From contig CAWEWF010000004.1 of assembly GCA_963812605.1 (NCBI GenBank), forward strand, positions 320,001 to 384,000: a stretch of DNA of 64,000 nucleotides, read 5' to 3'. Under the pieces are notes generated by a model. It worked only from the letters and a program-made list of their open reading frames with translations, was not told where the DNA came from and made no database searches. Shown here in pieces: positions 42,239 through 47,677 of this stretch (position 1 is the first letter of the stretch; the number at the start of each line of letters is the position of its first letter). Made by a program: the position numbers and the translations under genes. This stretch comes from an uncultured Verrucomicrobiae bacterium (GTDB lineage Bacteria; Verrucomicrobiota; Verrucomicrobiia; Palsa-1439).

Positions 42239-42283
42239 GGGATTCTAAATCCTGATTGACAGGATTCTAAATTGGCGTATGTT
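42239..42283 (+). promoter_or_regulatory. Putative vapBC promoter with GGATTCTAAAT direct repeat
   Basis: TTGACA (42256) followed after 16 nt by TATGTT; ggattctaaat occurs twice, flanking the -35 box. Confidence 0.5.
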
Positions 42284-42289
42284 GGAAGC

Positions 42290-42514
42290 ATGAAAACGAC
42301 CATTGATATTCCAGAAGAACTGCTTCGGGAAACCATCAAACGCACCCGCGCCAAGACGAAACGCGACGCGGTCGTTACCGCCCTTGAAAAATTCAACCGC
42401 CTCCAACGCCTTCGCGAATTGAATGCGAAATTGCGGGGAACATTCGTTGACTTCATGACCCAAGACGACCTCAAGATCATGCGCGAAGATGCGAAATGGA
42501 CGAGGACCTCGTGA
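42290..42514 (+). CDS. vapB: VapB-type antitoxin
   Basis: MKTTIDIPEELLRETIKRTRAKTKRDAVVTAL. Confidence 0.85.
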   Translation: MKTTIDIPEELLRETIKRTRAKTKRDAVVTALEKFNRLQRLRELNAKLRGTFVDFMTQDDLKIMREDAKWTRTS

Positions 42515-42888
42515 AACTTGTGGACACATCCGCGTGGGTGGAATACTTGCGCTCCGGGCACGGGGAGGTTGCTGAGAATGTAGAGTCGCTGATCCTGTCC
42601 GACGACGCTGCCTGGTGCGACATGGTGATGCTTGAGCTTTGGAACGGCGCACGCGGACAGGAAGAAAGACGAAAGCTGGCGGAATTGTCAGCCGCCGCTC
42701 CGCGCTTCGAAACCAATTCCGAAGTCTGGAAACTGGCGCATCGGTTGGCCACTCGCTGCCGCGACAAGGGTAAGACCATTCCGGCGACCGACATTTTGAT
42801 TGCCGCCTGCGCCACTCACCACGAGGTCGAGTTGGAGCACAAGGACGACCATTTTGACATAATTCTGCCGCTGGCAAAATCATTATGA
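42511..42888 (+). CDS. vapC: PIN domain toxin VapC
   Basis: LVDTSAWVEYLR, MLEL, TDILIAACA, HKDDHFD. Confidence 0.9.
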   Translation: MKLVDTSAWVEYLRSGHGEVAENVESLILSDDAAWCDMVMLELWNGARGQEERRKLAELSAAAPRFETNSEVWKLAHRLATRCRDKGKTIPATDILIAACATHHEVELEHKDDHFDIILPLAKSL

Positions 42889-43011
42889 ATCCGAACGCCG
42901 CCCTGCTCCGCTGCGGCAATCTGCCGGCGCTCAGATGGACGATTGAACCGAACACTGGCATTTCTGTCGCGAATGCGGAATTGACCCCGACAGCCGGCTG
43001 CCGTCACCGAT

Positions 43012-43359
43012 TCAGTCCTTCTTCCGTGCGGCACAAATACCACACCGAATGCGCGTGCCGATTCTGTCTTCGCTCAGGATTAGACTGACGAGTTTCCGGT
43101 CTGCATCCCAGCACGTGAGGCAATATGGCCGCTCCTTATTTTTGTCGTCGTCCAAGAAGTAACTGTTGCCGTCACGACGCAAGCGTGTTGTGATGTCGCT
43201 GGCTTCCTTCAGCGACTTAACCTGCTCGCGTAGTTCCAAATTCTCCTCGCGTAGTTGGAGAATTTCCTCGCGTAGTCCCACAATACGTTCGTAGAGATCT
43301 TGGTCGTTGTATTTCTTGACCAACTCTGCAATTTCTTTGGCGTGGTCCAGTATGCTCAT
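43012..43359 (-). CDS. Coiled-coil plus zinc-ribbon hypothetical protein
   Basis: Heptad region, then PYCLTCWD...RCGIC; RBS aggag. Confidence 0.7.
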   Translation of the reverse strand: MSILDHAKEIAELVKKYNDQDLYERIVGLREEILQLREENLELREQVKSLKEASDITTRLRRDGNSYFLDDDKNKERPYCLTCWDADRKLVSLILSEDRIGTRIRCGICAARKKD

Positions 43360-43392
43360 GATTTCTCCTAGACGGGCGTGATAAACCTAACG

Positions 43393-44250
43393 TCAGGCTG
43401 AGGAATCACCTTCAGAGATTTGCCTGCCCGACTCGTCCTTGAATTTTCCATTTTCAAACTCGACCAAGCTGGAGATGAAACGGACATCGTCCTCTGAAAG
43501 TTCAAACCACTCGCCATGAACCCTTTTCTTGGTAAACCAGCCGTGGAGTATCTTCTCAGCTTTGTAGCTATCATCTGCGCCGATCTCGTGCATGACTAGA
43601 ACTGTGAATGGAAGCAGGGTATTGACACCTTTGGATCGCGTCTTAGGTTCTCCGCTTACACCGATTTTGTATATGCGTCGTTCTTTGTTTCCTAGCAAAT
43701 ACACAAAGCCATCATACTCCTTATTGGTCGCTCTATTAGGATGCTGCCCGCACCGTTCTTTACATGGCCAACAAGCCTTTTTGCCTTCTATGTCAATGCA
43801 AACAGATTTCCTACCTTCTTTACCCTCGCAACGCTTGCTTGCTTGCAATTCACACACTGCCCATGTGTTAACACGGTGTATGCCAGGGAGAAGCACCTCG
43901 ATAAGTTCCTCAACGTCGCTGTGAAACAACTCCAGCTTAATGGGAGGCTTTCGACCAAAATAAAGTTCGAAGGGGTCCCGTGGAGAGCTAAACTCCAGGT
44001 TGTCTAAACGGTGGTCCCGTAGCCGTAGCTGTATACGGATACGAATGCCATTCCAATCCACCCATTCATACTCCAAGGCGGAGCCTTGGAAATGGTCACC
44101 GAAAGGTATAGCGCCACGTTCCTTGCTGGTGTCGAGTAGTCCTGAGATGAAGCCGAAATGCCAGACTGCATCAAAGAGCCAGTCGATGACCTTCCTCTGG
44201 ACGAGTTCTCTCGCCTGCTGCGAATCGCCAGTGTCATCTGTGTGAGACAT
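43393..44250 (-). CDS. T5orf172/MUG113 (GIY-YIG-like) nuclease domain protein
   Basis: GFVYLL...YKIGVSGEP.TR...AEKILHGWF.KKRVHGEWFELS; Cys cluster upstream; visibly AT-richer DNA. Confidence 0.8.
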   Translation of the reverse strand: MSHTDDTGDSQQARELVQRKVIDWLFDAVWHFGFISGLLDTSKERGAIPFGDHFQGSALEYEWVDWNGIRIRIQLRLRDHRLDNLEFSSPRDPFELYFGRKPPIKLELFHSDVEELIEVLLPGIHRVNTWAVCELQASKRCEGKEGRKSVCIDIEGKKACWPCKERCGQHPNRATNKEYDGFVYLLGNKERRIYKIGVSGEPKTRSKGVNTLLPFTVLVMHEIGADDSYKAEKILHGWFTKKRVHGEWFELSEDDVRFISSLVEFENGKFKDESGRQISEGDSSA

Positions 44251-44265
44251 TGCCGCGATGTGTGG

Positions 44266-44610
44266 TTACCTCTTCCGTTTTGCGCGGTACTTGGCTCGTG
44301 CCTCAGCGATTGTCGTGGACGGTGCTGGCGGCAGTTCACGAATGAACGACCAGGAGACTTCGGCGACTTCGTCGGTGTCGTAGGTGACTTTGAAATGGCT
44401 GCCCAGATCGTTGTCTACCTCTACACTCACCGGGATGGCTTTGGCGGAAATCCGGTTGGCCTTCTTGATGGCGGATTGCGGCTCAAGAAAGCAGAGGCCG
44501 TCCGCAAACTCCACTTCGAAGGCGTCTTCCCAGCCCAAATACCGGGCCCTGCGGACGCGGGCAAAGACCGCCTGGCCGTACGGTTTCTTAAGTTGAACGT
44601 GTGTCTTCAC
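44266..44610 (-). CDS. Hypothetical protein, possible DUF2442-like antitoxin
   Basis: ARYLGWEDAFEVEFADG resembles the DUF2442 N-terminus. Coupled (GTGA overlap) to an upstream gene remnant ending KLITELKNEGRL. Confidence 0.45.
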   Translation of the reverse strand: MKTHVQLKKPYGQAVFARVRRARYLGWEDAFEVEFADGLCFLEPQSAIKKANRISAKAIPVSVEVDNDLGSHFKVTYDTDEVAEVSWSFIRELPPAPSTTIAEARAKYRAKRKR

Positions 44611-44699
44611 AGGCGACCTTCGTTTTTCAATTCCGTGATCAGCTTAATCAGTTTGTCGTCCGGCGTCCAGCAAGCACCGTGTGGCTGTGTTTTAAAATT

Positions 44700-45178
44700 T
44701 GGCCGGCGGGCGTTGGGGTGGGTGAGATGCTCCAAGCGGTTGTGCTCGGCCACGCGCAGCGCCAGGACTTGTTGGCGACGGGTGACCAACTCCGCCAGTT
44801 GACTCTGGGCGGCGCTCAACGCGGCGGTGCCGGCCGGGTGTACGGCGGCGCCGTAAGCCGCCAGCACGGCGGCATCCAGTTGGTCAGTCTTGGCCAGCCG
44901 ACCGGTGGCGCGGGCGAAGTCGCGCACGTGACGCGCGTTGACTACCGAAACCACTACACCGGCGCGTGCAGGGCGGCCACGACGGCGCGTTCATAGCCGC
45001 CTGTGGCTTCGCCGATGACGTGCACGGATCCCAGAGCTTGCAGCCAACGCACCAAGGCGCGGTGGCCCTGAGGGTGGTTGGGAAACTGACGGAACTGCGC
45101 GCGGGATCCGCTGGCGGCGTGCAGATCCAGGGTGAGTTTGGCGACATCCATTCCGACGTAGACGATCGATGGCAACAT
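44700..45178 (-). pseudogene. IS110 DEDD recombinase, frameshifted and truncated
   Basis: YVGMDVAK, IGEATGGYE, VVNARHVRDFARATGRLAKTDQLDAAVLA, LVTRRQQV. The C-terminal Tnp (catalytic Ser) domain is missing. Confidence 0.88.
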
Positions 45179-45185
45179 GGTTAGA

Positions 45186-45385
45186 CTCCTCCTTGCAATG
45201 CGAGCTGGTGGTGGCGCGGATGGGCGCGACCGCCGCTCTGGCAACTGTTCGAGCGTACCGACAGGCAACGCGGATGGATCCAGCTCCAAACGGACAGGTC
45301 TGAACCGAACCGAGGGCCACGACGATCACTTCCGCGCGCCCTTGGGGGGCATGCCCCCCAAGGGCCATCCTGTCGCTCCCACACG
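45186..45385 (-). ncRNA. Putative IS110 bridge RNA
   Basis: 5' hairpin (45339-45364), then LTG CGTGGCCCT (45321-45313), RTG TTTGGAG (45290-45284), LDG ACAGTTGC (45248-45241) and RDG TTGCAAGG (45198-45191), in the same order as IS621. The RNA ends are approximate. Confidence 0.75.
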
Positions 45386-45426
45386 GTGGGAAACCAAGCC
45401 AGAGAGTACCAAAAATTCTAGATACA

Positions 45427-45488
45427 AGGGCCACGCTCCGTCGCGTCGCGTTCATTCAATGCGGCCACGACGGAGCGTGTCCCTCCAA
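45427..45488. repeat. Inverted REP pair; the left arm is interrupted by IS110
   Basis: agggccacgctccgtcgcgtcgc ... gcggccacgacggagcgtgtccctccaa. Confidence 0.7.
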
Positions 45489-45557
45489 GCCGCAGATCAG
45501 GACGTTACCCACCGTATTGTAATAATCCCGAGGCGGGACACCACGAGGAAGACCGGA

Positions 45558-46672
45558 CTACAGCGTCCGGCGAAACAGCAGCGTGGCGGCGGTCATGGCC
45601 AGGACGGTGAAAACCAACAGAAAAAGCAGGTCGCCGCTGACGGCCACAAGCCGGTGTTTTTCAAGACGAAGCTGTTTGAACCCGTGCACGGCGTAGGTGA
45701 ACGGGTCGACGACCGCGATGGCTTTCATCCAGGCCGGAAAGGATTGCGTGGGATAGACCGCGCCGCTGGGGAAATACAACACCGTGTTCAACATCCCGAA
45801 AATGGCGCGCGGCACCAGCGGGTCGCTCACGCGCACCATGATCAGAAACATCATGCTGATCAGCGCCAGCGCCGTCGCCACCACCAGCAACAGCATCTTC
45901 GCCAGTCGCAGCGGGATTCAACGGATCGGGAATTCCCGCGATGAGCGAGCCGAGAGTGATCAAAACCACCCCGGCGATGATGGCCTTGGCCGCGCCGGCG
46001 AGCGTGAAACCCAGAATCAATTCAAATTTGCGGATCGGCGTGACGAGATAGCCCTCGTGCAGGCCGCGCGCCTTGTCGTCGATGAAAATGATGCCGCCGC
46101 CGATCATGGCCGAAACAAAGATCGCCAGCACGATCGTGCCGGGCAGCAGGTACTGGATGTAAGGCACGTACGGATAAATCTCCACGACGGAGAGCGTCGC
46201 CGCCGCGGTCGTGCGCGGCGGAACGGCGGGTCCATTGTAGGGCGCAAGCATGCCATTGAGGCTGCCTTCGAGCGCGGACGCGGAGAATTGTCGGTGTTGT
46301 CTTCGACCAGCGCGATGCGCGGATTCGCTCCGGCGAGGACCTTGCGCGAAAACTCCGGCGGAATGTCAGCACGCCGTTGATTTTGCCGTTGCGCAGATCG
46401 CGCAGCGCGGCCGCCTTGGTCGCTGTAAGCAATCGGTGTCGAAGGTGCGCGCGTTGGCGGCGACGGCCTGGCACATTTCCTTCAGTTTGATCGCCGGCAC
46501 GCCGTGGTCCTGGTCGACGACGCCGACTTTCAGGTGCTTGACGTTGCCGCCGAACGCGTAGCCCGAGCACGACCAGCTGCACCAGCGGCATGACGATGGA
46601 GACGATGACCAGAACCGGGCTGCGCCGGAACCGGCGCAGGTCGCGTTCGATGATGGCCCAGATGCGGTGCAT
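45558..46672 (-). CDS. ABC-2 type transporter permease (several frameshifts)
   Basis: MHRIWAIIERDLRRFRR, YIQYLLPG, GLHEGYLVTPI, FPSGAVYP..SFPAWMKAIAVVDPFTYAVHGF. Confidence 0.8.
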
Positions 46673-46686
46673 ATCGTCTTGTCCTC

Positions 46687-47677
46687 TTATCCTCGCTGCA
46701 TCAGAAACGGGCTGTTGGCAGCCGCCGGGCGCCTGCAACGCGTCGCGCAGTTGATGGCCGGTGTAATGCACGAACACGTCGTCGAGCGTCGTGCTCTGCA
46801 CCGAAAGCGAAGTCACCGTGACGTTCGCGTTGCGCGCCGCTTCCATCAATGCCACCGTCGTGCGCGGGCCGTTGTTCGACGAAATCCGGAAGATGTTGTC
46901 CTCCGCCTTCACTTCGGCCACGTCGGGCAGGTGTTTTCACGTCTCCAGCCAGTGTTGCGGACGTTCGAGAAACTGACCTCCAGAATGTTCTTGCCGGGAA
47001 TCGAGGCCTTCAATTTCAGCGGCGAATCCAGCGCCACCAGTTTTCCGTGATCCACGATCGCGATGCGGTCGCAGAGCTTGTCGGCTTCGTCCATGTAATG
47101 CGTGGTGACGAGGATCGTCAGGTCGCGCTCGCGTTTCAGCCGCGAGAGCATCTCCCAGACCGCGACGCGCGAAACGGGGTCGAGGCCGGTGGTCGGCTCA
47201 TCGAGGAAGAAAAGCTTGGGCTCATGCACCAGGCCGCGCGCGATTTCCAGCCGGCGCCGCATTCCGCCGGAAAACATTTTCACCGGCTTGTCCGCCCATT
47301 GTTCAGGTCCACTGCCTTCAGCAACTGGTCGGATGGTGCGCAGCCGCTTTTCGCGCGGAATGCCGTAGAGCTTGGCGAAGATGCTCATGTTCTCCTCCGC
47401 GCTCAGATCGAGATCGGACGTCATCGCCTGCGGAATGACGCCGATGGACTGGCGCACGTCGTTGGCCTGCGCGGACGATGTCGAAGCCGTTGACGCGCGC
47501 CGTGCCGGAAGTCGGCGGCACCAGCGTCGTCAACATGCGGATGAGCGTGGATTTGCCCGCGCCGTTTGGCCCGAGCAGACCGAACACCTCGCCGTGCTCG
47601 ACGGAGAAGTTCAGCGCGTCCACGGCCGTAAAATCGCCGAAGCGCTTGGTCAAATTTTCAACGTCGATGTCAGCCAT
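46687..47677 (-). CDS. ABC transporter ATP-binding protein, DrrA-like (several frameshifts)
   Basis: [56 protein letters not shown]. Confidence 0.85.

Follow-up and report, generated by a model that had tools for sequence, protein, structure and literature searches.

A truncated IS110-group insertion sequence in a REP palindrome of an uncultured Verrucomicrobiae bacterium and the bridge RNA predicted in its left end

The locus considered here lies in a stretch of 64,000 nucleotides from an uncultured Verrucomicrobiae bacterium (hereafter the window) and raises two questions, namely what kind of element occupies one arm of a REP palindrome and what is encoded by the long leader ahead of its gene. 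The first-pass annotation, made from the letters of the DNA, had proposed an IS110 bridge RNA whose four guides match its own insertion site. Our analysis indicates, with a probability of roughly 0.9, that the locus is the left end of a 1203-bp insertion sequence of the IS110 group, a relative of IS621, with a leader of about 250 nt that encodes a predicted bridge RNA. The same explanation also covers the CT-core insertion in the right REP arm and a leader in which two 5' hairpins are followed by one loop for binding the target and another for binding the donor.

A genome-wide blastn search with a full copy as query recovered four copies of 1203 bp and a 726-nt piece in the window, and nothing else. 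The latter (44702..45426; this and the features below are on the minus strand unless stated otherwise) corresponds to nucleotides 1-726 of the element and begins with TGTATCTAGAAT at 45426, and the same search found no separate 3' fragment of the IS in the genome. An intact 313-aa recombinase is encoded by three of the full copies, which look functional, and the remaining one carries a 1-bp frameshift. The leader together with 14 nt of flank occurs five times in the genome at 99-100% identity, and upstream of all five copies stands ...ACGACGGAGCGTGGCC-CT, the right arm of a REP palindrome, with the left target CGTGGCC-CT directly before the element. At the opposite end all four full-length copies terminate in ...GACAGTTG-CT, i.e. 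ACAGTTG-CT, and are followed by CCAAGT, CCGAAG, CCAACG and CCAGAT, respectively; the eight genomic sites of ACAGTTGCTCC comprise these four right ends and four positions in unrelated sequence. The CT core is present at both ends of each of the four full copies, there is no longer duplication, and empty sites read CGTGGCC-CT-CC with one CT only. The window copy is truncated at its 3' side, and therefore its own right target is unreadable in the window. Looking for the lost half of this target by way of the common REP tail motif gave three matches with 3 mismatches, where chance would give 5.3, none of them of use. The junction CGTGGCC-CT-TGTAT that had been noticed earlier is present at 45435-45422, and the donor ACAGTTG-CT-TGTAT proposed with it proved correct. 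The accompanying expectation for full-length copies was a right end of ACAGTTG-CT followed by CCAA; the end itself is found in 4/4, the next bases are CC in 4/4, CCA in 3/4 and CCAA in 2/4, and the proposed target CGTGGCC-CT-CCAA stands as CGTGGCC-CT-CC, its last two bases varying as CC(A/G)(A/G).

At the level of contigs, four DNA runs from one study contained neither a circle junction nor an empty-site joint. A metagenome contig (run X1, record 3; L003:1510-1539) links the left end of the IS to a flank ...GGGGAACGCA that is unlike any of the five sites, and this single low-depth contig may come from a further, sixth site of insertion within the population, with about 5/7 of the left target matched there.

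The intact 313-aa protein shows matches in Pfam to PF01548 DEDD_Tnp_IS110 (E 1.7e-24) and PF02371 Transposase_20 (E 4.6e-15), and aligns over residues 5-300 with the IS621 chain 8wt6_A (E 3.9e-39). The catalytic residues of IS621 given in the structure paper, namely D11, E60, D102, D105 and S241, together with G242 (PMC11208158), have conserved equivalents in the motifs GMDVAK, GEATGGY, KTDQLDA and RDSG. The recombinase domains and catalytic residues, the left-end RNA with its two loops, the four guides, the CT core and the first handshake base (see below) are those that define the IS110 group within its family; a junction promoter is present as a candidate. The IS1111 group shares with it the recombinase family and an RNA-guided choice of site, and there the seekRNA lies downstream of the recombinase gene. 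This arrangement is excluded in the present case, because just 11 nt and the CT follow the stop codon before the end of the element, and thus only the left end has room for the RNA.

The left end is followed by a leader of 248 nt, an AGGAGG ribosome-binding site and the ATG at 45178. The 5' part of the leader (45338..45390) forms two hairpins, one at 45390-45378 and one with a 12-bp stem at 45366-45338, both of which are seen in folds and show compensatory pairs in RNAalifold; the first-pass annotation had mentioned a single 5' hairpin before the guides. These are followed by the target-binding loop (TBL; 45270..45335), in which an outer stem of 45335-45324 with 45280-45270 and an inner hairpin at 45312-45291 enclose the LTG CGUGGCCCU (45321-45313) on the 5' side and the RTG UUUGGAG (45290-45284) on the 3' side, the latter continued by the handshake dinucleotide CU (45283-45282). 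The donor-binding loop (DBL; 45185..45254) is closed by an outer stem of GCUC (45254-45251) with GAGU (45188-45185), has an inner hairpin at 45238-45202, and contains the LDG ACAGUUGC (45248-45241), the RDG AUUGCAAG (45199-45192) and the handshake dinucleotide GA (45191-45190). Minimum-energy folds of the leader display the 12-bp hairpin and then a stem around an internal loop that exposes CGUGGCCCU on its 5' side and UUUGGAG on its 3' side. The folding z-scores are modest, at about -2.2 (-2.24) when the leader is folded as a whole and at -1.85 and -0.66 when the DBL and the TBL, respectively, are folded by themselves; folding energy on its own is not discriminating, and the guides of the unbound RNA are in part paired with one another.

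A search for related loci yielded 79, some of which form a close clade within the Verrucomicrobiae, at 59-74% identity of the protein, and many of which are elements at 36-51%. Applied to the nine distinct leaders of the clade, RNAalifold recovered both internal loops, and 13 of its 60 pairs show compensatory changes. The covariance model that we built for the two loops from these nine members scores 145 bits on the window (45339-45182). It also has full-length matches in 27 elements that are more distant, every one of them located upstream of the recombinase gene, at E-values from 2.7e-8 to 0.057. Two loci searched with this model (L045 and L047) gave no match at E up to 1 and stand outside the counts, and three that it misaligned (L056, L082 and L089) are kept in them as misses. 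Over the alignment of 36 distinct rows 97.5% of the cells are standard pairs, as against 34-48% when the partner is shifted by 1-3 columns, changes on both sides occur in 24 of 27 pairs, and 0/500 shuffles match the observed values; the pair counts are inflated, the alignment being fitted to the covariance model and the sequences being related. Comparison of the sequences thus supports all four helices by covariation, though the figures are generous, and the two internal loops exposing the guides, the lack of which would have spoken against the first-pass annotation, are recovered. Scanning 44400-45700 against Rfam 15, with E-values up to 10 allowed, gave no matching family and no bridge-RNA family; its matches are all sub-threshold ones of the microRNA/snoRNA type, mostly on the REP palindrome.

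The guides can be compared with those of IS621 by way of the residue numbers quoted in the papers on that element. As described there (PMC11208160, PMC11208158), the 9-nt LTG of IS621 has the top-strand sequence of left target and core, the RTG of 4 nt, extendable to 7, is complementary to the core plus the right target, and two handshake bases come after the RTG and two after the RDG; the LDG has 8 nt, A123-C130 (PMC11208158). In the present element the LTG CGUGGCCCU equals the left target plus core in 9/9 positions at all five sites. The GGAG part of the RTG (core plus CC) is matched at 4/4 sites and the next U at three of them. The LDG ACAGUUGC equals the right end plus C in 8/8 positions, the ninth base being C and not U. 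The handshake C at 45283 is complementary to the G at donor position 7, and the second handshake base of the window copy is unpaired. The leader strings quoted in the first-pass annotation, namely CGTGGCCCT (45321-45313), TTTGGAG (45290-45284), ACAGTTGC (45248-45241) and TTGCAAGG (45198-45191), are all present as written, and their assignment to four guides holds, inasmuch as these lie at the IS621 structural positions of LTG, RTG, LDG and RDG and covary with target and donor in relatives (see below). It has to be narrowed for the RTG TTTGGAG, of which 4-5 nt (core plus CC, often A) are matched, the UUU extension being fully matched at none of the four occupied sites.

The REP palindrome used as target in the window (45427..45486) consists of a left arm at 45486-45468 and a right arm at 45443-45427, and ends in ...CGACGGAGCGTGGCC-CT; the left target CGTGGCC (45435-45429) and the core CT (45428-45427) form the end of its right arm. 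CGTGGCCCTCC occurs 15 times in the genome, where base composition would predict 5.5 occurrences, and at least 10 of the 15 belong to REPs that are intact and unoccupied and have the form GGAGGGACGCGCTCCGTCGCGTCCG-loop-CGGCCACGACGGAGCGTGGCCCTCC. Another repeat family (...GGCCACGATCCTTCGGC...GCTCAGGACAGGCTCCG) likewise ends in CGTGGCCCTCC, e.g. at C8:184828, C10:188060 and C12:35132, and provides perfect bridge-RNA targets in another sequence context, of which none is occupied. The sister arm of the window REP, where CTCCAA had been noted earlier and is indeed found (45483..45488, plus strand), reads ...CGTGTCC-CT-CCAA, with one of seven left-target bases unlike the used arm. The two arms of the REP differ in general, the complement of the left arm being CGCGTCC-CT-CC and in the window CGTGTCC-CT-CC, and the use of one arm only would be explained by this lack of identity. 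An IS110 element in REPs is also ISPpu10 of Pseudomonas putida, whose left target occupies the 3' arm of a stem-loop situated 5' of the CT core (10.64898/2026.03.19.712850); the REP of the present genome is a different palindrome and far longer, each arm measuring about 25 nt. As a structural gate has been reported for ISPpu10 in that preprint, it is conceivable, albeit the less probable reading, that the RNA pairing is real and the REP stem-loop 5' of the core nevertheless co-determines or even dominates the choice of site. This would accord with the REP hairpin directly 5' of the core at 5/5 occupied sites and with the lack of insertions at CGTGGCCCTCC sites in other contexts, such as C5:220820. 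However, at least 10 perfect sites in REP context are unoccupied too, relatives insert where the flanks show no such REP, and five insertions are too few to part sequence from structure. Choice of the site by the guides of the bridge RNA is the reading that we retain.

The RDG of IS621 is discontiguous, with A157-U158, a flipped-out U159-U160, G161 opposite dT12, and C162-G165, as given in the structure paper (PMC11208158). In an equivalent register the RDG of the present element, AU-U-G-CAAG, faces CT-TGTAT, with CAAG complementary to CT-TG. The first-pass annotation had read this guide as the complement of CTTGTA with a wobble; of this reading CAAG stands, though the guide is better placed in the IS621 register, and the last G of TTGCAAGG is the handshake position rather than part of the RDG. 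The G-T wobble likewise finds a precedent in the G161:dT12 of IS621 (PMC11208158), but is not conserved among relatives. Contiguous pairing of UUGCAAG with CTTGTA, with one G-T wobble, is an unlikely alternative to the discontiguous register: either of the two gives 6 to 7 pairs with CT-TGTAT, but the relatives conserve A-U, one to four variable bases and (G)-CAAG in combination with a constant donor TGTAT, a pattern that mirrors the IS621 arrangement of residues 157-165 quoted above. Among the clade members the two bases before CAAG are variable, the donor TGTAT being constant. In relatives whose left ends start with AG or TA, CUAG or UAAG is found where others have CAAG.

The relatives offer a comparison of guides and flanks across elements with other targets. 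In a relative with four copies the RTG is UUUGUAG and the flank CT-ACAAA at 4/4 sites. An LTG of UCCAGCC occurs with TCCAGCC at two of three readable sites, the third (L013) matching in only 3/7 positions. A relative with 17 copies has the RTG UUGGUAG and a flank of CT-ACCAA at 13 of 14 readable right flanks, the other flank being ACCAGT; its LTG AGUCGCC is found after AGCCGCC at 12/17 sites, where the U would face a bottom-strand G, and its other left targets are AAGCGCC (3/17) and ACGCGCC (2/17), each a 5/7 match. The left target of L014 matches in only 3/7. Counted over distinct elements, a full match of the 7-nt RTG is seen in 16 of 32 cognate versus 5 of 990 non-cognate pairs, with means of 6.0 and 3.5, and the mean LTG match is 6.8/9 for cognate (n=23) versus 4.5 for non-cognate pairs (n=502). 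The RTG misses include L043, L053 and L038, at 4/7 each, and the misaligned L056, at 2/7. The right-end variants ACAGCTG, ACAACTG, ACGGTTG, ACAGTTA, ACAGTCG, ACGGATA and ACAGGTA are each accompanied by an LDG of the same sequence, with exceptions in L046 and L048, which are off by one base, and L047, with a G facing T. In 27 of 28 elements the base that comes next to the RTG on its 3' side complements the final base of the right end (25 C-G, 2 U-A, the one miss being in a misaligned row), and for the second handshake base pairing is seen in no more than 6 of the 28. On these alignments the agreement of guides and flanks in the relatives is to be taken as a code and not as coincidence.

To gauge the role of chance, the 248-nt leader was shuffled 200,000 times at the mononucleotide level. 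The LTG 9-mer turned up in 0.32% of the shuffles, the LDG 8-mer in 0.29% and the RTG 7-mer in 1.4%, and 2/200,000 had both the 9-mer and the 8-mer; the 4-nt cores alone are not significant, GGAG being found in 72% and CAAG in 43% of the shuffles. That the guide matches are fortuitous, the leader being only a structured 5' UTR and the REP sites being picked by the recombinase protein on its own, would sit well with these frequent cores and the modest z-scores but is extremely improbable, in view of the rarity of the joint match, the corresponding bases that relatives with other flanks bear at the same loop positions, and the compensatory changes in all four stems, a covariation that already contradicts it.

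The same genome has two diverged copies of a second, different IS110-group element, about 1.2 kb long, at C8:~246500-247900 (minus strand) and at C4:~305300-306600, about 14 kb before the start of the window. Its ends are CT-TGTATCTTGCCC and ...GACGGTAT-CT-ACA. The C8 and C4 copies differ at the LTG position, with AAGCGCGG versus GACCGCCG, and their own left flanks, GAAGCGCGG-CT versus AGACCGCCG-CT, match accordingly; the pair is a case of natural retargeting within a genome. Two relatives from Dehalococcoidia (L053 and L042) have AT instead of CT at the left junction, an LTG ending in AU (9/9 in L053) and CT at the right junction, and thus constitute a type of natural element with a target core that is unlike the donor core at the first base.

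By analogy with IS621 these features can be placed in a potential recombination cycle, in which transcription of the RNA, a promoter at the junction and the chemistry of strand exchange are steps that we infer. An excised circle would join the right end to the left end, giving ACAGTTG-CT-TGTAT, and this RE-LE junction would create a promoter for the bridge RNA, as the IS621 papers describe a promoter rebuilt on the circle (PMC11208158/PMC11208160). The LDG ACAGUUGC and the RDG AU/G/CAAG would hold the donor junction, the DEDD/Ser recombinase would exchange strands at CT, and the handshake C after the RTG could pair with the last donor base, G, once the strands have been exchanged. A candidate -10 box, TAGAAT (45415..45420), gains a -35 element, ATGAAA, only where the right end is linked to the left end: the computed junction contains one sigma-70-like site, ATGAAA-17-TAGAAT, with 9/12 consensus matches and with ATGAAA overlapping the recombinase stop codon, and by the same pattern criteria the integrated context contains none. 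Over 12 elements scanned the junction site is present in eight and absent in four relatives, and in the integrated state it is found in 0/12. More distant relatives have TTGAC(A/T)-17-TATCTT at the junction, in comparison to which the -35/-10 pair of the present element is 4 nt further downstream. A site confined to the junction fits the IS621 model of a promoter rebuilt on the circle, as a weak, pattern-matching indication.

The 3' strand of the DBL outer stem, GAGU (45188-45185), overlaps the Shine-Dalgarno AGGAG, and CAAGGAGGAGUCUAACC-AUG is invariant in 9/9 members of the clade. One might speculate that the ribosome-binding site is hidden once the bridge RNA folds or is captured by the recombinase, such that in this clade there would be competition for AGGAG and a transcript would serve either as guide or as mRNA. 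We regard this as doubtful; if true, occlusion of the ribosome site would be a built-in negative feedback of the recombinase on its own synthesis.

Judged by the IS621 papers (PMC11208160, PMC11208158), the element has in common with IS621 of E. coli the DEDD RuvC-like domain, coiled coil and Tnp-Ser domain of the recombinase, an RNA encoded in front of the gene, within the left end, with the order 5' stem-loop, TBL and DBL, guides of 9 nt (LTG), 4-7 nt (RTG) and 8 nt (LDG) with a discontiguous RDG, a CT core, REP targets, nearly the same donor, a handshake base complementary to donor position 7, and a promoter split across the RE-LE junction, the last being in the present case a candidate from pattern matching. 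It differs on the same sources in its target, CGTGGCC-CT-CC as opposed to ATCAGGC-CT-AC (PMC11208160), in having two 5' hairpins rather than one and one unpaired RDG base rather than two, in its handshake base, which is C (donor position 7 G) and not A (T), and in a DBL outer stem of only 4 bp that coincides with the Shine-Dalgarno; the host is of Verrucomicrobiae type, as judged from the related loci, instead of E. coli. These differences are matters of detail: the mechanism is well known and the member new. As the study of Durrant et al. 2024 analysed thousands of ncRNA-target pairs (PMC11208160), a new set of guides is to be expected and not surprising, and the distinct natural specificity claimed in the first-pass annotation is true, though routine, each relative in the clade carrying its own guides. 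The element, or a near-identical one, may be among the catalogued IS110 orthologues in the supplements of the IS621 papers. What it adds is a fully readable natural bridge-RNA system of a Verrucomicrobiae-type genome from soil, in which the ends, the target, four guides and one handshake base are defined, and its close relatives with naturally retargeted LTG and RTG are possible orthogonal bridge recombinases or a natural test set for the guide rules. The understanding of the mechanism is unchanged, and only the clade-specific overlap of donor-loop stem and ribosome-binding site might teach something new.

The differences between copies of the element are mainly in homopolymer length, and one of them is restored by short-read contigs (an extra G at L003:1582), because of which the single-base frameshifts in the assembly, including that of the window copy, may be assembly errors. 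Beside the REP, the ABC-2 transporter genes for an ATPase and a permease (45558-47677) are broken into several frames. Taken with the homopolymer differences among the IS copies and the extra G in the short-read contigs, the split frames suggest indel errors of the assembly and not true pseudogenes.

The recombinase gene remnant of the window copy (44702..45178, ATG at 45178) is one base short near 44957 relative to the other copies and is cut within the part for the coiled coil, such that the open frame keeps the DEDD part only (DEDD_Tnp_IS110 domain) and the Tnp (serine) domain is absent. After 44702 the sequence diverges from all other copies, and the 3' 477 nt of the element, right end and Tnp domain included, are missing. 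Unlike the possibly artefactual frameshifts, this 3' truncation is real. The window copy is an immobile relic, which can neither excise via donor ends nor make a recombinase, because the right end and the Tnp domain are absent; its bridge RNA gene is intact, with both guide loops identical to those of the intact copies. The DNA past 44702 has a lower GC content (46-51% versus about 60%) and contains unrelated genes. The segment that abuts the truncated IS (43000-44702, GC 46-55%) encodes a 114-aa ORF that has no Pfam match (44266-44610), a 285-aa ORF with a T5orf172/MUG113 domain (43393-44250) and a 115-aa ORF with a coiled coil and Cys pairs (43012-43359), all on the minus strand. A VapB/VapC (PIN) pair is found at 42272-42888 on the plus strand. 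This low-GC segment looks like a small foreign island, the arrival of which took away the 3' part of the IS.
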